In this document: piece after piece, positions 18,477-58,811 of the stretch
How the letters are laid out: every line of letters begins with the position of its first letter
Numbering within the stretch: the first letter of the stretch is position 1
Source of the DNA: Spirosomataceae bacterium
GTDB lineage: Bacteria; Bacteroidota; Bacteroidia; Cytophagales; Spirosomataceae
Length of the DNA stretch: 64,000 bases
Assembly: GCA_041689775.1 (NCBI GenBank)
Contig: JBDNFP010000193.1
Coordinates: 744-64,743, forward strand
Direction: 5' to 3'
The notes under the pieces: model-generated
Told to the model about the DNA's origin: nothing
The model's database searches: none
The model's input: only the letters and a program-made list of their open reading frames with translations
Program-made: the position numbers and the translations under genes

Positions 18477-21400
18477 ATGAATCAATTTTTACGACGTCTG
18501 AGTCTGCTCGTTTTGGTGTGGGTAGGGTATGGAGAGGCAGGAGCAGCCGACGGTCTGCGTTTTATACAAAATAAAGGACAGTGGCAACAGGATGTTCTGT
18601 TCCGCGCGGAGTTGCCCGGAGGGTTCCTTTTTTTGAAAAAACAATCGATGGTATACGTGCTGTACGATGCCCGGGAGGTATCGGCCCAGCACGCCAGTAA
18701 GCCTCTGCAAGAAGAAAGTAGCAGGGTAGTTCCACAAGTCATCAAAGCGCACGGAGTAGAGGTGCAGTTTGCCGGAAGTAGCCCCGAAGTAAAGTTATCC
18801 CAGAGTAGTCCCGATGGTAGTTCTTACAACTACTTTATTGGCAATGACTCCAATCGATGGGGTAGCCAGGCCGGTGGGTTTGGGGAGGTGCTTTACAAAG
18901 ATCTTTACCCCGGAATTGATTTCCGGATTTACGCCTACAAGTTTACCATCAAGTATGAGTTTATTGTGCATCCCGGTGCGGATGCCTCCCGTATCCGACT
19001 CAACTACGAAGGAGCGGCGGGCCTACAACTCAACAAATCGGGGCAAGTAGTAATTGAAACTAGCGTGGGACCTTTCAAGGAAGCCAAACCCTACTCTTTC
19101 CAAGAAATAGAGCAACGAACCCGCGAGATTGCCTCCAATTTTGTTCTGAAAGATAATCAGATCGAATTCGCCCTCCCCAACGACTATGACCATACCCAAT
19201 CGCTGACCATTGATCCGGAGCTAATTTTCTCTACCTTTTCCGGGGCGCAGTCAGACAACTGGGGCCACACGGCTACCTACGATAACCAGGGGAATCTCTA
19301 CTCGGGAGGAACGGTCTTCGGGGCTAATTTCCCCGTTTCGATTGGGGCTTTTCAGGTAAATTTTGGCGGTTTTGTTGATACCGCTCTTATGAAATTCAGT
19401 CCCGATGGGGCACGACTACTCTACGCTACCTTCGTAGGAGGAAGCGCCACCGATATTCCCAATAGTTTGGTCACCAACAGCAAAGGTGAGCTGTTTGTGT
19501 ACGGTACCACGGCATCAACCAACTTTGCTACGACGGGCAATGCTTTCCAGACCACGTTTGGTGGTGGGGCCAGTATTACTCCCATTGATGGGCTGGGTTT
19601 GGCCAACGGAAGTGATATTTTTGTACTTCGTATTAGCCCCAATGGGCAGCAATTATTGGGGTCGACGTACCTGGGAGGAAGTGGCAACGATGGGCTAAGC
19701 AGTGTTTCGAACATTCAGATTCGAAACTACGGCGATACCTTCCGTGGGGAAATCGTGTTGGATAAGAACGAAAATGTACTGATTGTTTCTTCAACCAACT
19801 CCACCAATTTTCCCTTAAAGAATGCTTTTCAAACAACCTTGTCTGGAAGACAGGATGCGGTTATTTCCCGGTTTTCTTCTGATTTATCAACGCTCCAATG
19901 GAGTACCTACTTTGGGGGTGGAGATTTTGACGCTGCTTTTTCCATCAAGCCTTCTACCAATGGAGAGGATGTTTATATTACCGGACTAACCAAAAGTAAT
20001 AACCTGCCGATCAAAGGAGGTACTTTCAAAGACCGACTAGGGGGTGCCGAAGATGCTTACGTGGCCCGTTTTAAGAACGATCAGTTTGTGCAGGTGAGCT
20101 ACCTGGGTACCGACGCCGCCGATGGTGCTTACCTTCTCGACCTGGATCCATCCGGCAACGTGCACGTATTTGGGGTAACCCGCGGAGCCTATCCCGTTTC
20201 GCAGGGAGTGTACAGCGACGCCAACAGCGGGCAGTTTATTCATGCCCTGGACCCTACACTATCCCGAACCATTTTCTCTACCGTCATTGGCTCCAAGCGC
20301 GGAGTACCTGACATCTCCCCTACGGCCTTGCTGGTCAATGAGTGCGGTAATATTTACATCGCTGGTTGGGGTGGAACAGTCAATGAACGTACTGCCTACA
20401 ACACCCAAAGTAGTACGAACGGCATGACCGTTACCGACGATGCCATCAGACGTACTACCAACGGAAATAATTTCTACCTCGCGATCCTGGAAGCCGGAGC
20501 CAAGTCCATGCTGTACGCTACTTACTTTGGTAGCGTAAGCCCCGCCAACCCGCTCGAAGACCGCGGTGACCACGTGGACGGAGGTACCAGTCGCTTTGAT
20601 AAAAACGGCGTAGTATATCACGCCACCTGCGCCTGCGGCGGCACGCGCTTTCCCACTAGCCCCACGGCCTGGTCGCGAACTAACAACAGCGATAACTGTA
20701 ACAATGCCGCCTTCAAACTTGATATTGACCGCCTTAGAGCCGATTTTGATGTGTACGATGGAACAGTAAAAGGAGTAGTGCAGGGTTGCGCTCCGTTGAA
20801 TCTAACTTTTGTAAATACCAGTGAAGGTGGGGTCGATTATATTTGGGAGATAGACGGCGGCGGGTTTTCGCGGGAGGCTAACCAAAGCAATTATAACTTC
20901 ACCAAGGCCGGAAACTATACCGTTACCCTGCGAGCATTTAACCGCCTCACCTGCAAGAAAGTCGATATCGCTACGAAACAGATTAAGGTGACGAACCTTA
21001 ATGTCGTGGCGGCCGGAGATACTACCGTTTGCCACGGAGTGCCCGTTCCGCTGCTGGTGCAAGGAGGAAAAGAGCATACCTGGTCCCCCGCCGAGGGACT
21101 GGATAACCCTAAAAGCACGAATCCAATTGCCCGGATTGATAAAACTACCGAGTATAAAGTTGAGGTAAAAGATGAGGCAGGCTGCGTAGTGACCAAAACC
21201 GTAAAGGTTACCGTGGATGATAGCAAACCGGATTTCCTAGCCAGTAAGGATACCACTATTTGTCCCGGACAAACCGTAGTACTCACTAGTGCCGGTTCGG
21301 CGGTAAGCTACATCTGGACCGCCGACCCCAGCCTCAGCGATACCACCGGAACGAGGGTATCAGCAACGCCAACCCAAACGACTACCTACACCGTAAAAGG

Positions 21401-22172
21401 GCAATACGACGATGGTTGTACGCCTACCGAAACGATGACCATCACCGTTGATAACAACAAACCCGACTTTACCGTCAGCCCCGGGCTACTGGTCTGCGCG
21501 GGTCAAAAAGTAGACATGCAGGCATTCGGAAGTGCTGCCCAATTTATCTGGAAGGGAGATAGCTCCCTGAATGCAACGATTGGAACCGTGATAACGGCCT
21601 TCCCCAGCCAAACTACCACCTATACCGTGCAGGCCAAATATGCCGATGGTTGTAAACCCGAAAAGCAGATTATCGTGCAGGTAGACCGGACCTACGAGCC
21701 TCTGTTTGAGATTATCCAGTCGGGAGAGGCCTGTAACGAACCTGTAAAGTATGAGTTTCAGAACCTGACCAAAAATGCGGCCCGCTACGAATGGAATGTA
21801 GGGAATGGAGCTAGGCTTACCAGTAATAATGTAAGCGATAAAGTTTACGATACCCCGGGAGAATACGCTGTTACATTGACCGCCTACAATCAGGCGGGCT
21901 GTGCACTATCGGTATCCCGGTTACTCAGCGCCGCGCCGCCGTTGGTACTTCCTAATGTTATTACCCCCAACGGCGACGGTAAGAATGATACCTTCGTGGT
22001 GCCGGTACAAAACTCCTCGCTACAAATTTATAATCGCTGGGGTAAAGAAGTACTTAACTCCCCTGACTACCAGAACAACTGGGGTAAGGGCGTCGGTAAT
22101 GGTACTTATTTCTATGAAATAGCAACCCGGCGGGGCAATCGCTGCAAAGGGTGGGTACAAGTATTGGAGTAA
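18477..22172 (+). CDS. Large secreted surface protein with beta-propeller-type repeats, PKD/Ig-like repeats and a T9SS type B (gliding-motility-associated) C-terminal sorting domain.
   Basis: Signal peptide, and repeated Y.T..GG...D motifs. Three tandem modules of about 75 aa lie at roughly 21000-21700 (..TTYTV....DGC...). The C-terminus reads VITPNGDGKNDTF...IYNRWGKEV. Confidence 0.8.
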   Translation: MNQFLRRLSLLVLVWVGYGEAGAADGLRFIQNKGQWQQDVLFRAELPGGFLFLKKQSMVYVLYDAREVSAQHASKPLQEESSRVVPQVIKAHGVEVQFAGSSPEVKLSQSSPDGSSYNYFIGNDSNRWGSQAGGFGEVLYKDLYPGIDFRIYAYKFTIKYEFIVHPGADASRIRLNYEGAAGLQLNKSGQVVIETSVGPFKEAKPYSFQEIEQRTREIASNFVLKDNQIEFALPNDYDHTQSLTIDPELIFSTFSGAQSDNWGHTATYDNQGNLYSGGTVFGANFPVSIGAFQVNFGGFVDTALMKFSPDGARLLYATFVGGSATDIPNSLVTNSKGELFVYGTTASTNFATTGNAFQTTFGGGASITPIDGLGLANGSDIFVLRISPNGQQLLGSTYLGGSGNDGLSSVSNIQIRNYGDTFRGEIVLDKNENVLIVSSTNSTNFPLKNAFQTTLSGRQDAVISRFSSDLSTLQWSTYFGGGDFDAAFSIKPSTNGEDVYITGLTKSNNLPIKGGTFKDRLGGAEDAYVARFKNDQFVQVSYLGTDAADGAYLLDLDPSGNVHVFGVTRGAYPVSQGVYSDANSGQFIHALDPTLSRTIFSTVIGSKRGVPDISPTALLVNECGNIYIAGWGGTVNERTAYNTQSSTNGMTVTDDAIRRTTNGNNFYLAILEAGAKSMLYATYFGSVSPANPLEDRGDHVDGGTSRFDKNGVVYHATCACGGTRFPTSPTAWSRTNNSDNCNNAAFKLDIDRLRADFDVYDGTVKGVVQGCAPLNLTFVNTSEGGVDYIWEIDGGGFSREANQSNYNFTKAGNYTVTLRAFNRLTCKKVDIATKQIKVTNLNVVAAGDTTVCHGVPVPLLVQGGKEHTWSPAEGLDNPKSTNPIARIDKTTEYKVEVKDEAGCVVTKTVKVTVDDSKPDFLASKDTTICPGQTVVLTSAGSAVSYIWTADPSLSDTTGTRVSATPTQTTTYTVKGQYDDGCTPTETMTITVDNNKPDFTVSPGLLVCAGQKVDMQAFGSAAQFIWKGDSSLNATIGTVITAFPSQTTTYTVQAKYADGCKPEKQIIVQVDRTYEPLFEIIQSGEACNEPVKYEFQNLTKNAARYEWNVGNGARLTSNNVSDKVYDTPGEYAVTLTAYNQAGCALSVSRLLSAAPPLVLPNVITPNGDGKNDTFVVPVQNSSLQIYNRWGKEVLNSPDYQNNWGKGVGNGTYFYEIATRRGNRCKGWVQVLE

Positions 22173-32086: not shown

Positions 32087-33384
32087 TTAATTACCGGTAG
32101 TAGTTTTATAGGAATAAAGCGCCATCAGCAACTGAATCTGATGGAGGGATAGATTCTGCCGGGCGGCATCCTCCGCGTTGATATAGGTGAGGTAGTCATT
32201 GGATGTCAGGGTTCCGAATTCCAGCTGGGCACTAGCACTGGTTTTGATTTCTTCCCGAAGCGCGATGATCTGATTGTCAGAGTCAATCAGCGACCGGTAT
32301 TTTTCTACTTCGCTGTTTTGCTGCTGCATTGCTACCCTGGTATTAAACATAAACACCTCTCGTTGAATATCGACGGCATTTTGGCTGATAGCAAGTAGTT
32401 GCCGGTCGTTATCCTCGGTATAAAAGCCCGACAGGTTCCAGTTAAAACGAAGACCACCGAGGTAGTACAAATCAAACTTGTTGCTCAGGGCATTGAGGGC
32501 CGGATTACCATAGCCCCCTTGTAAAAACAGGCTAAGCCGGGGGTTCCTTTTGGCTGACGTCATGTTTTTCTGAATCTCAAAGCTCTTTTTTTGCAAGTCA
32601 AAGAGACTCAGCTCAGGTCGGCTTATTTCCGACGAAAGTACCTGGGCGATGGGTGTTTGTAATTGGGTGTTTTCATCTACCAGCTGACTGATCAGCAGGC
32701 TTAGCATAGCGGCAAACCCCTGCCGGTTGGCTTTCAATTCAATCGTACGCTGATCGGCACGGAGCAACTCGGCCCGCAGAATATCCGCGTTGCTTTTCAA
32801 CGCTACCCCATTGGCGATGGAGGCTTCTACTTTGGTCAGTCCTACCTGAATATCTTTCTTCATCAGCGTGACTTGCTGCTGCTGAGCATCCATCAACAGC
32901 ATACCAAAAAACAGCTGATTAATACGCTCATGCAGTTTATACAACTCGACTTCAAGCTTCTGCTTTTCGGCCACCGTAGTGGCTTCCAGCAACTCTTTCT
33001 GCTGCCTAATTACTTTCCGTCGGTCAGTGACTGATTCACCTCCCCAAAAATCCGATATTGGTCCTTATTGGGCGACGGGATAGTACGGTCGGGGAATGAG
33101 ATAGGCACGGTAGTCACCGCCGACTGCAAGGTAGCCTGCCCACCCATGCTAAACTGTGGGAGATTACCCTTGGAGGCATTTTCAAGCGAGTACTCCTTGG
33201 ACTTTTCAAGCAGCGCCATTTGTTTAATCAAGGGGTAATTGTCCCTGGCCAAGTCGTAGCAGGCTTCAATCGTAAGGGCATCTGCCGTTTGACCCATCGA
33301 ATCGGTATAGACTAGTAGGCTCACCAACAGCAACCAATAGTACCTTCGCCGCAAGGGTACGGGGGGAAGTTTAACGTTGTTCAT
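32087..33384 (-). pseudogene. TolC-family outer-membrane efflux protein, frameshifted into two ORFs (33010-33384 and 32087-32992).
   Basis: The N-terminal ORF carries the signal peptide and the first TolC repeat. The C-terminal ORF continues in another frame. Both frames are open only across about 33010-33057, which contains T5/G4 runs. Confidence 0.7.
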
Positions 33385-36802: not shown

Positions 36803-38818
36803 ATGTGTACCAAAACAAGACTTTCCCTACTCCTTTCTTTTCTTATTCCCTCTACCATTTGGGGGGGAATCATGGTTGAATTCCCCGGTAAACACACCGT
36901 TTTTCAGCGAAATCAGGCGAATGAGGGTCAAATTCCGGTGGGTGGAATCTGTACTTTCCCTTACCAGAAAATAGAGGCACGGCTGGTATCCATACCTCAA
37001 AACGAAGGTAATTCCGGCCCCTGGACTTCCCTAAACGTACCTGCCAGGAAAGGTGTTTTCTATGGGGTACTGACCGCCAAAGGGGGTTGGTACCAGCTGC
37101 AACTCCGGGGTATCAAGGAGGGCGAAGAAGCTGATACAACCTCCGTTTTTCCGATAGGGGTTGGAGAAGTATTTTTGGTAGCCGGGCATTCTAACGCGAT
37201 GGGACTACCCGATTTGGGAGCAAAAGGAGGATCAAATCAGGTTGTCTCGTTTAACGCGCTTAATAAGATACTCAACGTCGAAAATATTACCGTGGCACCA
37301 AACGCACCCATGCCTTCCCCTACTTTCTCTCCGTTTGATGCCAAAAATTTCGCCTTTCCTTCCGGAGAATCTGCCTGGTACTGGAGCGAGCTTGGTCAAC
37401 TAATTTCGGATCGATTAAAAGTACCCGTCCTATTTATGAATGCCGGATGGGCGGCGGCTAATTCAGTTAACTGGCGGGAGGCTGCTCAGGGTAGTAATAC
37501 ACTCAATATCTACGTAGGAAAAAACTGGCCGAACCGCCAGCCCTACTCCAATCTGATTAATACGCTACGGTATTATCATTCCTGGCTCGGTATAAGAGGT
37601 GTACTTTGGTTTCACGGAGAAAATGACGCCGGACACCTGAAAATAGCTCAGCAGGATTACTACGCTAATATTCGGTACGTCATCGAAAAATCTATGGCTG
37701 ATTTTGGGCACCCATTGACCTGGATCATCGGACAATGTACCTATAACAATAGTAACCCAGAACCGTACCTTCCAGTTTTGAACGCCCAGGCACAACTGAT
37801 CACTACTCCCGGACTGATGGCCTGGGGAGGGCCCTACACCGATACCATACAAGTACCACGTCCGTCCCACGGTCATTTTGAAAATATTCCGGGGGGTATT
37901 CCGGGGCTTTCCCAGATGGCCCAAGCCTGGAACCGATCACTTCCGGATGCCTTCTTTGCCCAACGCCCCGCCCACACATCCGGCTCTTCCATTATGAGTG
38001 GTGTAGTACCGCGGGAAGCTTCGCCCGGCCACCAATTCCTGCTTCCCTATCGAGTCATAGGCTCTCTGCCCGCTACCAGCAAAATGGAGGCTCACTTACT
38101 GGATCAGCAGGGACAATTTATAGCGATCGTCGGGAACGGTTCCCAAAACCCACTGCGCGTTAGCTTACCTCCTACGCTCGTCGAAGGAAATTATTCGGTC
38201 CGGGTGATAGCCCAAGATCCGGTTTTGGTGGGTAGTGTATCTTCATCTTTCGTGGTAAGAAAAGGCCTTTCGGCACCACAGCCTATCCGCTCGCTGGAAA
38301 TGCAGGTACTGGAAAATCAAACCTTGCTCCATACCTTGCTGGCGGCTGACCCGGAAAATCTGCGTATTACCTTGGAGCGAAGTGACGATTTAATAGAGTT
38401 ACAGGCCGTTGAAACCGTACAAATAGCCAGTAGTAGTCAGTCAGGCCTGTTTACACTGACTGATACACAGCCGTCCGACCAAAGTACTTATTACCGAATC
38501 AGACTAGATCAACGATCCGGAGGAACTCAGTATTCCCAATGGATTGCTACTTTCAGAGGGAATGCACCGCTGGTATTTTCTACCTTCCCCAATCCTGTAT
38601 CGGTTGGTCAGCCAATCTATATCCGAACTGACCCAGCCCAACTGCTAAATTTTCAGCTGTTCAATGCCACTGGACAACCCATTCAAGCAAGCTTATCGGA
38701 GAGTGATATTATTGGTCTTTCGGCGATTTATCCCTTCCAACCACTGGAACCCGGCGTGTACCTATTACAGATCACAACTCCCTCGGGTGGCAGTAGCCAA
38801 CGAATCATGGTGCGGTAG
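36803..38818 (+). CDS. Secreted sialate-O-acetylesterase-like (SGNH/DUF303) protein with a T9SS type A C-terminal sorting domain.
   Basis: Motifs GHSNAMG and WFHGENDA. The C-terminal ~80 aa read FPNPVS...LFNATGQPI...GVYLLQI.... Confidence 0.7.
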   Translation: MCTKTRLSLLLSFLIPSTIWGGIMVEFPGKHTVFQRNQANEGQIPVGGICTFPYQKIEARLVSIPQNEGNSGPWTSLNVPARKGVFYGVLTAKGGWYQLQLRGIKEGEEADTTSVFPIGVGEVFLVAGHSNAMGLPDLGAKGGSNQVVSFNALNKILNVENITVAPNAPMPSPTFSPFDAKNFAFPSGESAWYWSELGQLISDRLKVPVLFMNAGWAAANSVNWREAAQGSNTLNIYVGKNWPNRQPYSNLINTLRYYHSWLGIRGVLWFHGENDAGHLKIAQQDYYANIRYVIEKSMADFGHPLTWIIGQCTYNNSNPEPYLPVLNAQAQLITTPGLMAWGGPYTDTIQVPRPSHGHFENIPGGIPGLSQMAQAWNRSLPDAFFAQRPAHTSGSSIMSGVVPREASPGHQFLLPYRVIGSLPATSKMEAHLLDQQGQFIAIVGNGSQNPLRVSLPPTLVEGNYSVRVIAQDPVLVGSVSSSFVVRKGLSAPQPIRSLEMQVLENQTLLHTLLAADPENLRITLERSDDLIELQAVETVQIASSSQSGLFTLTDTQPSDQSTYYRIRLDQRSGGTQYSQWIATFRGNAPLVFSTFPNPVSVGQPIYIRTDPAQLLNFQLFNATGQPIQASLSESDIIGLSAIYPFQPLEPGVYLLQITTPSGGSSQRIMVR

Positions 38819-50507: not shown

Positions 50508-51577
50508 ATGGAAAATATCCTATTTTCTCCTTTACAGATTCGAGGGGTAGAGTTTAGAAACCGCATTGGGGTATCGCCCATGTGTATGTACAGCAGCATC
50601 GACGGGTTTGCCAACGACTGGCACTTAGTACATTTAGGTAGCCGGGCCGTGGGTGGTGCGGGGTTGGTATTCACCGAAGCTACCGCCATTACTCCCGAAG
50701 GTAGAATCACCCCCAATGACCTCGGTATCTGGAAAGATGAACACATCAGCTTTTTGAAAAGAATCACGGCATTTATTCAAGAACACGGGGCCGTGGCGGG
50801 CATTCAGTTAGCTCACGCCGGCCGGAAGGCCAGCACCCAACGGCCCTGGGAAGGAGGACAGCCTTTACCTGCCGATCACCCGGATGCCTGGAAAACCGTT
50901 GGCCCGAGCGCGCTCCCTTTTTCTGAGACATCACCTACCCCGAAAGAACTAACTACGGACGACATAAAGACCATCGTTCACAAATTCCAGGGCGCTGCCA
51001 CAAGGGCTTTAAAAGCCGGATTTAAGGTCGTGGAAATTCATGCCGCTCACGGCTATCTACTGCACGAATTCTTATCGCCCATCAGTAATAAGCGCACCGA
51101 TCAGTACGGTGGCAATTTTGAGAACCGAATCAGGATTGTGGTAGAAATAACCGAGGCTATCCGACAGGTATGGCCGCAGGAGCTTCCTTTATTCATGCGC
51201 ATTTCGGCCACGGACTGGACCGAAGGCGGCTGGAACGCCGATGACTCCGTTGCTTTGGCCAAAGAACTCATACCACACGGCATAGATTTGATCGACTGCT
51301 CAACGGGAGGAAATATAGCGCAGGCGCAAATTCCGGTGGGGCCCGGCTACCAGTACCTTTCGCAGAAAAAGTAAAGAAAGAAGCGGGTATTAAAACAGCA
51401 GCCGTCGGAATTATCGTGGAAGCAGACCAAGCTAATGCAATCATTACCGAGGGTAGAGCTGATATGGTATTCATGGCCCGGGAGTTTTTGCGTGATCCCT
51501 ACTTCCCACTGTACGCCGCTAAACAATTAGATGAGGATATAGCCTGGCCGTTGCAGTACGTTCGTGCTAAGAGGTAG
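50508..51577 (+). pseudogene. NADH:flavin oxidoreductase (Old Yellow Enzyme, NamA/YqjM-like) with a 1-nt deletion frameshift near 51351-51354.
   Basis: Frame 0 ends ...GPGYQYLSQKK*. Frame -1 continues VPFAEKVKKEAGIKTAAVGII...GRADMVFMAREFLRDPYFP...* (TAG at 51575-51577). The conserved string PGYQVPFAE is restored by one extra G after CAG. Confidence 0.8.
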
Positions 51578-51586
51578 TAATTCAAT

Positions 51587-51622
51587 CCCAATCTGACAAG
51601 TTTTAAAACCTGTTAGGTTGGG
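51587..51622. terminator. Bidirectional hairpin between the convergent OYE and sprA genes. It is a degenerate member of the 12634-type palindrome.
   Basis: 18-position stem with 2 G-U pairs and 1 mismatch. The core is CTGACAAGTTTTAAAACCTGTTAGG. Confidence 0.55.
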
Positions 51623-51629
51623 CATTTTC

Positions 51630-54600
51630 CTACTCCGCCAAATTGAATTTCACCTGCACCCCGCCCGCGGTGGTAGAACGATAGAACGAATTGGACACCA
51701 AAGGATCATTGAAGGTACGATCGAAATAGAATTGCAGACTGAGGCGATTACTCACGACGTAGTTGACCGTGGGCCGAAGCTGGAAGTTGATATTACCCGC
51801 AATCGGGATATTCTGCCCGTCAAACTTCCGCTGAATTGAACGGGTATCACGGAAAGACAATCCGACCTGCACCGTCAAATCATTTTTCAGTTTCTTTTTG
51901 ACTCCATTCACCTTAAACGGTATGGGCACATTGTTCTTCGTGAAGCCAATACTGATCGTCAAATCCTGATTGAATAACTCCGCTACCTGCGAGTTGGATA
52001 AGTTTAACGCCACCGTGCGATCACGGTTGTAGTCGATACGGCCCGTGATCCTGCTTTGGGTACGGAAATTAATTCCAATCAGTGGGGAGAACTTCTCGGA
52101 CATCGTGATAGTGCTCATCACGAATACCGGTACGTACTGCCCCAGGTAGTTACTACGCCCCGAGAGCGGATAGCCCGTCACGGCCAGATTCACGTAGAGC
52201 GATTCGTAGTCCAGCGAAGAAGTAAAATTGCCCACGCTATAATTGGAAATATAATTGTGCGTCAGCGTAAAAGAACTGAATATCTTCTTGAAAGGGGCCA
52301 ACTGCGATAAGCCATTGTAGTCAACCCGCCAGTTAGGCATCGGGAAACCGAGGAAGGGCGATACCTTCACCGTCTCGGGGTCCTTGCCGGTATAGGCAGC
52401 AAAGAAGGCCGGAATCAGTACGTCCTGCGAGTTTTCGTTGTATTCTCCGCCGCTACCATTCTCGGAATTGAGTCGTTGACGAAGAATCTCGCGGTAGCTC
52501 CGAAAACGATCATAAACGGGGGAGCTATTGTCCCGGTTCACTTTGGCAAAGGCCGTCCGGAACGACATGAACGACATACTGAACTGACCGTTCCGCACCG
52601 GACTCTGACTAATGAAGTTTCCACCGGGTTCTTCCGGTCGGTAGAACTCCTGATAGGCATCCTGCCGGGTCAGTCGCCCTTCAATCTGCATTCTAAAATC
52701 CTTGAAGGGTTCCAGGGTCGTTCGAAAATTGAAATTTTTCTGAATGGTCTGCTGAAACGGCTGATTCTGTACCGTACTGGACGTAATCCAGCCGTTATTG
52801 GCTGCCTTCACGTGAATCAGCCTATCCTGACTACCCAACACAAAGGGCAGACCGGGGGCGTTGGCATCATCGAGACCAAAGTACCTAGGCGTGCGGAGAT
52901 AACCCGGCAAGGCCGTTGTTTCTAAAACGGTATAGCTTACATTGATGCCACGAACGGTCATCAGTACCCGGGCGATGTTTTTAAGTACTTTACTCGGTGG
53001 TGGTGGTAACTCTTCTATATCTCCGGGGCTACGGGCAAAATTCTTTTTCCGCTGCGAAGGCGAGTTAGCAAAGCGCAGGTATTTCAGCTTATTGTACAGA
53101 GCAACGAAGTCTACGCGGCCACTAATGCCTCGCTCGCGGCTGTTCCGGATAATATTACCAAACGGTATTCCCAGCGAATCTTTGATCCCGAGTGCATTAG
53201 CCTGAAAATTATACGCTATGGTATGGTTATAATCGGCGGTCATCCAGTCGGTAAGCGGAAGTTTATCCAACGGTAATCGGTACGTAAACCGAATCCGCTG
53301 ATCAAAATTCTTGATCCGGCCTAGTTTCTTAAAATTACTCCACAAGGAATCCTGTTTTACCTCCGTATTGATATCCCCCATGGGCTCATCGATAATAGCA
53401 TTGGCTACGGTATTATAGCTCAGTACGATATTCTTTGTCAGGTTCCAGGTAAGGTCATAATACCGATTAAACCAGAAATACTTTTCGTAGAACGGTTCCA
53501 TACCCGACGTCGTCAGATCTGAGTTACGCAGTTGGGTCTTGGTAAAGCTGCGATCTACGTCCGTTCTTAGCGATACGGAAGAAGGCAGTAACGTCAGGTT
53601 GAAATCTTTCACAAAACCCAGATAACGGCTTTCGGTCTGCCATTTACGGAACGGTTCAAAGGCCTTCGGCTGGGAGGTATAGGTATAGGCTACGCCCCCG
53701 CGGTACATTCTCTGGGAGTACTCGTCCGTCAGAATATTCGTTCTTTTTAAGTCACTGAAAGCGTAGGTAAACGATAAATTTTCAAAGTCATAAAAATGGT
53801 TCTTTGCTCCTTGCTTTGTTTTTACCTTCCGGACGTTGGACAAGTTGATACCCCGCCGCACGGAGTTGTCCTCCACCAGCCTGCGGTATCGATCTCGTTC
53901 TTCGGCGTTGTCCAAATTTTCTAGTGAAGTAGTCAGGGGCATGTCCGGATCCAGTGGATTAAAGTGCGGACTTATTCGGCGGTTGTCGTAGTTGATGTAC
54001 AGTGGTATACTGAACCCCCACTGCTGCGGCAGTAGTTTATCCACCGCAATGTTGGATGAAATACCAAACTCGGTGGTGGTAGAGCGGGCCCGCTCCCCAA
54101 TCCGCATCTGCACACCACCAAAGCCAAATGTCTCCACCCTACCCGATGCCGTCACGGTGGCAAAATCAGCCAACTTAGCGTTCAGCTGAGCAATAGCCGC
54201 CTCGCCCGAGGTTTCATCAAAGCCTTCCACGTGCATTTCGTTTACCCACACGCAAAAACTCTTCGAGCGTTCATCCGGTGTCTTTGGATTTCGTACCCCA
54301 ATCATCAGTACGCGCACCGCACTCAGGTCAGGGTTTCCGACCACCGTCACCTTGTAGCGGCCATCAGCCGTCATGATGGAATAGGGTAAACTGATCGCGC
54401 TGTTCTCACTACGGTTTCGCTGTGACTTAGCCCTGATCAATTCATCAAAAGCAACATTAAGCTCATTTTCCAGGGGCCATACCTCTTCGGATTGGCTTAT
54501 ATTTTCTGGCGTTGCCCGTAAGTTGGCCACTTCTATTTCGTAATAGTTTTGGGTAAGGTCGGTACCAAGGCGTAAAAAGCCCCCTACCTGCCCACTCTCG

Positions 54601-57600
54601 TTGTCGTCGTTGTGCATGTGGATATACATGCGTAGTCTTTTCCGGAATTGCAGATCAAGATTTACGTTCTTGAATACCGCTCTCGAATCGCCGTCGCGAA
54701 GGTTCGTCACGCACAAGCTCATGGATTGCTCATTGAGCTGGAAATTACCCGCCGGCTGAGTAAAGTCTTGGTCCCGTTTCCAACCCGGAGGTACGGCGTA
54801 TACGTATTTCTTGTTAGAATTATTGGCCTGGCTATTTTCTTCGATACTTACGGTACCAACCGTAAACTGCGCATCGTACGGCTCAGGTACTTCCTGCAAA
54901 CCAGGCGAGTCCAAGTCAGACAAGTACTTGCGGTACTGCTGCCCCACCATCTGTAGTTGCGCAAAACGAAGAACAACGGGCTGCTCAAAGTCGGTCAGGT
55001 ATACCCGGATAAAACGGATGGATTTAAAGCCATTGATCTGCCCTACCTTACGGGTAAACTCCCGCACCGGCATCCGGAATAAGTACCAGTTAGCTCCGTT
55101 TGCTACCGTTTTATCAACGATATGCCCCTGGCCTATTTCCAGTCGATTGGGTTTCAGGTTAATTTCGTATTCGTAGTAAGCTTCATTGTCGTTGATGGTA
55201 TTATCTACGTTTAAATCTTCCGCATCCGGGATATTGGTTGCCGCAGGAGTAACGGTGTTATTGCTATTGGTGGCGGTGCTTTCGGGGGAGTTACCTTCCA
55301 TTCCAAGGTAATCCTTATAACGTTCCAGAATCTTCTTATCTGCTGCGTCCAGTTCAGCACCCAGATAAAACTGAAAATCATCTCCGGAGGGGTCAGCCAG
55401 AATTCGTTCTCTTGCCGCAGCTGTGAGGATAGCCGGAAGGCGGTCCAGAAATCTTTCCTTAAAGTAACGACGCTCGTCATCGTTGACCAAACCGTCAAGG
55501 CCGATATCTTGCTTCGCGCGCGCGCCCGGCTCATTGCTGAACGCATTGATCAGGAACTGCTGCTTCGAAACCCGTCCCCAGGCTGTGCTGTCAACATTCA
55601 CGCCCGGTTTTATCGGACCTACCGGTAATCCGTTTTCAAAATTGTACCGACCATCTTTTATTACGTCTTCTGATATATCACCGAGGTTAAATACCAGCTT
55701 ACCGCCCGTTGTATTATTTTTATTTTCGATACCGTCGCGCACGACTCCGTTTACCCCTCCAATGAACGGGTCCATCATCCAGAACTCGATGTTTTCAATG
55801 TTGGCGTTATCAAAGTCAATATCGGAAGTTACCGCCCGGGTAATAGCCCCAAAGTTGCGGCGCGCGTCCTTCAAGCGCCCGTCCTGATCCAAGTCTACGT
55901 TGTAATTGTACATACCCCGTTCTCTGGGGTAGTAGGCTATATCCAAAATACTCTGGGGTAGGTTCTACGGTGGTACCGAGCGACCAGGAAACAAATCTCG
56001 AGGGTAGAAGAGTCGTTCGTAGTAATTTTGGAGTACTTCATCGGTAATGGTTGGAGGCCGCAGCGATCCGCCACCAACACCTAGCCCGGTAAAACCAAAA
56101 ATATTATCCACGGTATATGCGGCAATCTTAGCCCTTTTGAAACCAAATTCAAGCGGGTTATCGGGGGTGCCCTGTGGGTACTGCTGAGGCGTTGCGCCCA
56201 AACGCCAGCGGGTAGGCTGACGGGTAAGATCATAGATGGTACGGGTGGCTTCAAAGTCATCGACCAGCGAACGGTTATTGACTCGAGGAGCTACCCCAGG
56301 GAAAATTTTGGCAACCTCCCCCTTAAACTGAATACTAGATGGCTCTTTGGTCTGAATCAGCGGAAGCTTATCGAGCCACTTGGTCAGGAAGGGCGCATCT
56401 TTCCGAATGTTGGCGTCAAATCCCAGAATGGTATTATTGGTAGGCTCGTTACCAATGGCAACCCGGGTCAAAAAACCAGCGGGCGTCTCCCGGTGCCGCA
56501 TGGCGGTCATACCAATGCTGATATCATTATTCACCAGGTAGTCAAGACGAGTACCCACCAAAGTTCTGATCTGATTATTAAACATATCAGGCCGTTCAAA
56601 CTCTATGATGATTTCTCTTCCGGAGTTCAGAACGCTTGGATTGATCAACCGTACTCTACCAATCTGCGCTTCTACGATAAAGTCCTGACCCGCCGCCAAC
56701 GACACCCCGCCGGCCGTTACGGTGACCGATTGCTCCGAAACACCAAAAGGTAGCTGCACGTCGGTACCACCAGCCGACTGATAGGCTCCTTTGAGATAAA
56801 ACTTATTGCGTTCCGATACCTGTTGAGCATCGATCAGCGTGGTGCGGTACAGCTCGTTAAATACGTACTTATTTTTCAGTATATCCTCATCCGCATCAAA
56901 ATACTTGGCGAGGTTGGAGCCAAAAGGTTCCAGTACCGGGAAGAACACCCGACCCGTACGCGGATCAATAGTAATCCCTTCCACAAAGTCGAAGTTACCA
57001 TCCGGTTGGAGATCATTGACGGGGTTAAGTCGGTCAAGTCCTACAACCCGGAGCAATGGTTTATTTTGCAGATTTCGGCCTTCCTGCAAATTGGGATTAT
57101 CAATACCCGTCAGGTCATCTTTGTATATTACCCGTAGCTGAAAACCATGTTTATCAATTTGGTTAGTGCCTAATGAATACACGTTTTTCATCATCAGGTT
57201 CCACATCGGAAGCTGCGTGTTATTCCGGATCGTAGATGACTTCAATAGTTTAAGCGCAATAACTTCGTCATCGCGGCGGTTCTGATAATCTTCGGTAAGC
57301 TCCCCTACTTTGTACGCCCGCCCGTTGAGGCTATACTCATAGGCGACGGCCAAGACCTCGTCATTACGAAGGGGTACTGTAAGTGAGATATATCCAAGCT
57401 GAGGGTTGTACTTATATTCGCGTTCTTCAATCAATCGTTTGGCTCCACGTAGCAATTCAAAATCTATGCTTTTCTGCAACCCAAGCTGAGAGCTAAGTTC
57501 AAAGTTGGTCCGGTCTACCTGCCGAAATCCATCATTATCTCTCAGGCTCTGGTACAGCCCGTTCGTTTCGTTTCCGGCGGGCTGCCTGGGGCTTATCGGT

Positions 57601-58811
57601 TGCAGGTTGGGATTAGCCGTGTTGTAAGGAGAGGGTTCTCCCAAGTCCGTGAAAGCCGCCAGGTTTCGGAGTGATTCAGTTGTTGTGGTACGGTTGGTTA
57701 CGTATACCTCCAAGCGGGTGATTGCAATACCTGACGTAATCATCGGCAGGTTTTTCAGCGCACTTTCGTACTGATTTCTAAAATACTGAGAGAGAAAGAA
57801 ATGACGATTTTCATCATAGTTATCAACCCGAATTTCAAAATCCTTGGTCTGAGCCCCGCCACGCAGTACAATTCTTTCTTTACGGGAGCGTTGCTGAGAG
57901 GCCACCACGGTAGCATTGAGCTTTCCGAACTGAAATTCCGTTTTCAATCCAAATAGATTCTGAACGCCCGGAATCAACTGACTGTTTAGGGCCCAGCTGA
58001 TATTTCCTGCTTCTATTTTCCGCACCAAGCTTTCCTCGGGTGCTTTGTAGTTAAGTTTTAAGGCGTTTTCAAAGTTAAAACTAGCCTTCGTATCAAAGTT
58101 GGTAAGGAAGCCCATCCGGTCGCCCAGATTTGCGTTGAAGTTGATGTTGATCTGTTCATTGAAGATAAAGTTAGTGTTCCGCCTTTGCCGAACGGGTACC
58201 GCCGGGTTATCGATAAACTGATGCAAGACTCCAAAGTCAAGTGCCACAAATCCATTGGGCTTAAAGTCCATGAAGCTATCCCCAAACAACTTATCCAGGG
58301 CTGGTGGCAGATCAAGCTTTGGTAGTAAACCCCTGCCCCCCATGGCGCTTTTACCGTCCAGCCGGGCCGAATACTCTCGCATCAATGATTCAAACGCCCG
58401 TTGACCCTGCACTTCGTTGTACTCCGACAGGCTCAAACTTTCGGTTGGCCTATACTCCAGACTTCCTTTGGGGGTGATAATATCTTCCGAAATCACCACC
58501 TTCCCCATGCTGTCCAGGCGGATCGTGGTGGTAATATTTTTAGGATCTTTCAGGTAGATTGAAGAGCGGGGCCGAGGCTCTGAGAAGCGATTACGGTAAT
58601 AATCCTGCCAGCGAATGATCGCACTTCTACCCGATTTTTTTAATGCTTCACCCGTGGTATCAGTACCGGTTGTATCCATTTCGTAGGTCACAAGAGGACC
58701 TGCATCTCCCGAAGGTGGAGGTGTGAAACCACCCGTAGCGCTGGCAAGGACATATGCCCCGGCTGTGATGGTAAGAGTACGAAAAAGAAATTGGTAAATA
58801 GTTCCTGACAA
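51630..58811 (-). pseudogene. sprA: T9SS translocon / cell-surface protein SprA. One continuous frame is interrupted by a single in-frame TAG at 55965-55967.
   Basis: The 948-aa and 1438-aa ORFs are in the same frame, 18 nt apart. The combined length is about 2393 codons, as expected for SprA. SprA-like strings include EAGNISWALNSQLIPGVQNLFGLKTEFQFGKLN. Confidence 0.8.

Follow-up and report, generated by a model that had tools for sequence, protein, structure and literature searches.

The window, by which we mean the whole stretch of DNA analysed here (64,000 nucleotides; positions 744 to 64,743 of contig JBDNFP010000193.1, assembly GCA_041689775.1, from a Spirosomataceae bacterium), carries on its minus strand a gene for the T9SS translocon that is interrupted by a single stop codon. 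The gene and the stop are as follows:

51630..58811, minus strand: sprA, encoding the T9SS outer-membrane translocon Sov/SprA; 2393 codons as one frame, with a TTG start and a signal-peptide-like N-terminus.
55965..55967, minus strand: in-frame TAG at sprA codon 949; TTG (Leu) in conspecific contigs, position 55966 being A here and T (gene strand) in 11/11 covering contigs.

The minus strand reads GGT ACC ACC G–TAG–AAC CTA CCC CAG AGT ATT TTG GAT, the three bases of the stop lying at 55967 (T), 55966 (A) and 55965 (G). Two ORFs lie in one frame on this strand, at 55965..58811 (948 aa) and 51630..55946 (1438 aa, with a TTG start), and the translation of 58811..51630 yielded 2393 codons, in which the only internal stop was that at codon 949, followed by the terminal stop, with no indel. 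The first-pass annotation had described a single in-frame TAG in a sprA of about 2393 codons, with both ORFs in the same frame and no indel, and this description was borne out by the sequence and its translation.

The identity of the gene was established from the read-through product, which matched the NCBIfam equivalog TIGR04189 with 2339.9 bits (cut-off 200) over profile positions 3–2318 of 2319, and the solved SprA of Flavobacterium johnsoniae (6H3I) with E = 0. Pfam SprA_N (PF14349) was matched by both fragments. The read-through protein was also 93.7% identical to a 2393-aa cluster representative (P0001), in an alignment covering residues 1–2393 of 2393. A paralogue or second copy of sprA, which could have indicated a chimeric assembly or compensation, was sought in the genome and none was found, the genome having one sprA only; nor was any composition anomaly found near the TAG site. 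As the first-pass annotation had recommended, SprA orthologues were aligned to find the codon expected at this position, and it is a sense codon for leucine (TTG in conspecifics). The aligned residue was Leu in the closest Spirosomaceae relatives (Arundinibacter, Persicitalea, Telluribacter and others) and Val, Leu or Ile in 112 of 120 homologues, and the codons used at the site in related genera were CTG, CTC, TTA or CTT.

Independent assemblies of the same population, at 99.9–100% DNA identity, exist in many JGI, ENA and Logan metagenomes. We aligned the window with 21 overlapping conspecific contigs, which were 99.8–99.99% identical to it. All 11 contigs covering codon 949 had TTG (Leu) there, and an uninterrupted sprA ORF was present in each of the 11. 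The protein data agreed: the 90%-identity cluster of P0001 contained six near-identical full-length proteins (P0123 and P0125–P0129; 2349–2393 aa), found on about 35 contigs, all of which read ...RSVPPLNLPQN... at the site, with Leu at codon 949. For the two fragments (P0121 and P0122; 948 aa and 1427 aa), the NCBI contig of this genome was the sole recorded source. A JGI protein of 1427 aa (P0124) was considered as a possible instance of the same truncation and was rejected, as its contig has TTG at the site and runs out 151 nt upstream of the ATG. A scan of metagenome contigs for the exact pattern gave no match for the TAG allele; the TTG control also gave none, though TTG-bearing JGI contigs exist.

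When the window was compared with all covering contigs, only ten differences were found over 62,670 covered positions. Three of these private differences were isolated transitions (10113, 19220 and 36857), and the other seven fell within 51353–56558. One JGI contig (L031) was identical to the window over 17.1 kb save for exactly these seven changes. The private changes in this interval are listed below:

55951..56035, minus strand: five private substitutions in 85 bp, the window differing from 11/11 covering contigs at each site.
56035 and 56034, minus strand: D926V, GAT to GTA, an adjacent AT-to-TA double change (AGATCT to AGTACT).
56006, minus strand: N936Y, AAC to TAC.
55966, minus strand: L949stop, TTG to TAG.
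55951, minus strand: N954S, AAT to AGT.
56558, minus strand: L752V, TTG to GTG, a private substitution in sprA 0.5 kb upstream of the cluster, differing from 10/10 covering contigs.
51353..51354, plus strand: private 1-bp deletion, CCAGGTACC to CCAGTACC (GG to G), 4.6 kb from the cluster; the extra base is present in 11/11 covering contigs.

The TAG is therefore private to this assembly, it is clustered with other private changes, and the cluster is odd in its mutational spectrum. The five substitutions alter four codons, each of them non-synonymously, and A/T transversions account for four of the five; the natural polymorphisms listed for the 21–42 kb part of the window were mostly transitions. 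Elsewhere, private substitutions occurred at about 1 per 10 kb in the roughly 163 kb compared (the window and contigs C114, C255, C317, C460, C358 and C200), and the probability of such a cluster arising by chance was about 1e-8, calculated as C(21,5) x 5 x (85/163,000)^4. Across the MAG, the private changes comprised about 10 non-synonymous and 4 synonymous ones, such that purifying selection was not apparent. The altered residues are variable in the family and do not discriminate, as V926 was found in 6, Y936 in 2, S954 in 13 and V752 in 13 of the 120 homologues. In a test for quasi-palindromes and templated mutation, only the change at 55951 lengthened a direct repeat (from 10 to 11 nt), a result compatible with chance.

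Variation of other kinds was also seen. A looser private cluster than that in sprA was seen on another contig of this genome (C255:16825–17179), where 354 bp hold three substitutions. They fall inside or next to a DUF7133/cytochrome c gene of 903 aa, and at least two change the protein. At window positions 1483–1774 there is dense natural polymorphism, with 7–10 sites in 300 bp relative to contigs L022 and L023.

A second assembly is irregular next to the sprA cluster. The JGI contig L013 stops at window position 56064 and has two private transversions in its final 22 nt (L013:1–22, corresponding to window 56064–56042), adjoining the cluster. The end of L013 is an erroneous assembly tip, and assemblies falter at this spot.

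The genome assembly consists of 514 contigs with an N50 of 17 kb; it contains 25 tRNAs and gave no match for a 16S rRNA gene. This profile looks like that of a short-read MAG, and the consensus therefore represents a community sample rather than a clone. To find broken genes, we compared the genome with 400 kb of a related one (G017) by means of 209 orthologue-like queries, and then checked the candidates against the conspecific contigs. Several broken genes were found, and the conspecific contigs divided them into those shared by the population and those private to the MAG. The private defects were the TAG in sprA, the deletion at 51353 and a further 1-bp deletion. The deletion at 51353 frameshifts the gene next to sprA (50508..51374, plus strand), encoding an OYE/NamA-type flavin oxidoreductase, which has 288 aa in the window and, from the same start codon, 356 aa in an ENA contig (L014). 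The other deletion (C358:14429) divides a GH3/beta-lactamase gene of 1024 aa; in 4/4 other contigs this gene is intact.

Among the shared defects, the in-frame TAA of a CBS-pair gene (C460:22361) and the in-frame TAG of a GDPD gene (C200:1648), both at positions of Gln in the relative, were common to all conspecific contigs, and, as judged from the contigs, the population really carries these genes as pseudogenes or split genes. A YceI-family gene (C317:1821–2360) has two in-frame stops, a TAA at 2306 and a TAG at 1904, where the relative has Gln and Trp, respectively; these stops were present in three of five conspecific contigs, and a co-occurring strain of about 99% identity has the gene intact, with 180 aa. 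A frameshift in a TolC-family gene of the window (32087–33384, minus strand) was considered as a possible sequencing error, and this was rejected because the frameshift is common to all conspecific contigs, where the gene calls are 95+301 aa or 95+39+237 aa; the frameshift is thus a real feature of the population.

Apart from sprA, the T9SS is intact, as the first-pass annotation had maintained from the window. The GldF encoded in the window matched TIGR03518 with 298.8 bits (cut-off 288.5), and of the two cargo genes to which a C-terminal domain had been assigned, that of type A (36803–38818) matched TIGR04183 with 37.6 bits (cut-off 23) and that of type B (18477–22172) matched TIGR04131 with 33 bits, just below the cut-off of 35, and also Pfam CHU_C. 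Outside the window, a porP/sprF-gldK-gldL-gldM-gldN operon is intact (C303:28057–34019). GldK, GldL and GldN scored above their own equivalog cut-offs, GldM, encoded by an open frame, matched Pfam PF12081 with 152.9 bits, and PorP/SprF was present. There were 31 matches to TIGR04183, the type A CTD profile, in the genome, and the frames of 30 had no internal stop.

In our view, the TAG is probably (at a probability of roughly 60%) a local assembly or consensus error of the MAG and does not belong to the sprA of the organism itself; the error is deduced from the comparison of contigs. The TAG is private, it lies in a cluster of five substitutions, and the MAG also has private 1-bp deletions, and weight therefore moves towards an artefact. 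On this explanation, the natural population would have TTG (Leu) at codon 949 and make a normal SprA translocon of 2393 residues, and about 85 bp of the MAG consensus would contain five wrong bases, one of which converts TTG to TAG. This stretch of about 85 bp would have been built from poorly supported sequence, and we infer a cause at the level of the assembler or of the reads, for which the candidates are a single low-quality read spanning a coverage dip, an erroneous contig tip kept where sequences were merged, or a local mis-assembly of another kind. Three observations count against such an error. The MAG is accurate outside this locus, with about one private difference per 10 kb, and an assembly that is generally error-ridden was rejected as an explanation on the same grounds. 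To our knowledge, neither A/T transversions nor a GG-to-G deletion are among the commonest Illumina error types. Finally, the lineage has several genuine pseudogenes common to different assemblies (the TolC frameshift and the CBS, GDPD and YceI stops), and real gene loss is therefore not rare in it.

This last point also favours the principal alternative, a real and very recent cluster of mutations in the dominant strain of the sample, in which a single patch of error-prone repair or translesion synthesis (TLS) would have left several A:T-to-T:A changes in a stretch of about 85 bp. SOS/TLS polymerases are known to generate transversions in clusters. We regard this alternative as a serious contender, at distinctly less than even odds. 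The bases stand in the deposited consensus, and the ratio of about 10 non-synonymous to 4 synonymous private changes would also fit brand-new mutations. The nonsense codon would have given rise to a non-gliding lineage null for sprA and the T9SS, which might perhaps be tolerated or even favoured for a while through phage resistance or by cheating on secreted enzymes; spr/gld mutants of F. johnsoniae are phage resistant. The five changes are nevertheless absent from all 11 other covering contigs and from the approximately 35 protein-encoding contigs, and a consensus such as that of this MAG shows an allele only when it is in the majority in that sample. With one copy of sprA, an intact gldKLMN-porP operon and 31 matches to type A CTD cargo, a null allele would moreover disable a heavily used pathway. 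From the architecture of 6H3I, we presume that the giant barrel could not form in a SprA cut at residue 948, and the downstream fragment presumably has no signal peptide. A cell in which the TAG was real would therefore be T9SS-null, and a null allele forming the majority in one sample is accordingly unlikely, though possible. The full scenario of a genuine single mutational event in wild Spirosomaceae, with a T9SS-dead, sprA-null lineage in the majority in one sample and the gene intact in every other community sampled, seems to us unlikely. Of the three readings proposed in the first-pass annotation, a base-call error and a recent nonsense mutation both stand and jointly take up nearly all of the probability, and read-through or suppression is effectively excluded.

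That third reading, in which UAG is decoded by a suppressor tRNA, by reassignment or by programmed read-through and full-length SprA is still made, is very improbable. The two halves of the gene share a frame and are perfectly preserved, as decoding would require, but the same is expected because the change is either recent and private or an artefact. Among the 25 tRNAs of the MAG, none was found with a CUA anticodon, for which a genome scan had been suggested; as this set is incomplete, the absence of a suppressor is unproven and the result is weak when taken alone. TAG terminates 668 of the 2373 ORFs of at least 300 codons (28%), and it is not enriched among 234 same-frame ORF pairs split by one stop (57 TAG, 144 TAA and 33 TGA); the other in-frame stops found in the genome are a mixture of TAA and TAG. 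Furthermore, the conspecific genomes, otherwise identical, use a plain TTG, and there is no conserved recoding site. With TAG a common terminator, no tRNA-CUA found and TTG in the conspecifics, genome-wide recoding was excluded.

Targeted hypermutation of the DGR type is likewise highly implausible, as is a patch recombined from a divergent allele of sprA. The substitutions are clustered in a surface protein, and AAY codons make up two of the four that changed. However, two of the five changes are at a coding-strand T rather than A, and the region has neither a second copy nor a template repeat in the genome, which excludes a DGR-type mechanism. The variant bases are absent from the 93%-identical sister alleles P0001 and P0131, and an imported allele would bring synonymous differences and no stop codon.

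The local error that we favour would have practical consequences. The record splits a translocon of 2393 residues into proteins of 948 and 1427 aa, both of which are already in public protein collections, and SprA would be wrongly scored as missing from the organism in an inventory of the pathway based on the MAG. Near-identical metagenome contigs can also be used, without reads, to sort population-wide pseudogenes (TolC, CBS, GDPD and YceI) from assembly-private defects (sprA, OYE and GH3). If the allele were true, it would be an ordinary loss-of-function mutation, and any added interest would be ecological only (phage escape or cheating).

Compared with known SprA/Sov proteins (F. johnsoniae SprA, PDB 6H3I/6H3J; TIGR04189), the read-through product is a full-length orthologue, 87% identical to the SprA of Arundinibacter roseus. 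The deposited gene differs from these in being split by a TAG at codon 949, such that this assembly lacks the single uninterrupted ORF of about 2300–2500 codons expected of SprA, and in having four private amino-acid changes (L752V, D926V, N936Y and N954S). If the TAG were real, the strain would be a natural counterpart of the spontaneous non-spreading spr/gld mutants of F. johnsoniae, with a single-gene loss of gliding and T9SS secretion. Those mutants are laboratory isolates with verified phenotypes, whereas the putative allele described here is read from a MAG consensus. The third comparison is with the local assembly errors of MAGs, which are consensus stretches without support from any read (Chen et al. 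2020, Genome Res, PMC7111523); 13 such errors were reported in one genome of 1.13 Mb, and wrong gene sequences spread from them into databases (PMC7111523). That class is defined by missing read support, whereas the present case was judged from assembled contigs. The frequency is of the same order, with one cluster and two 1-bp deletions here in about 163 kb, part of which was picked for frameshifts, as against 13 in 1.13 Mb. The likeness lies in the form of the defect: in both cases, a protein-coding gene of a public MAG is broken by a short stretch of consensus that all other assemblies of that population contradict.
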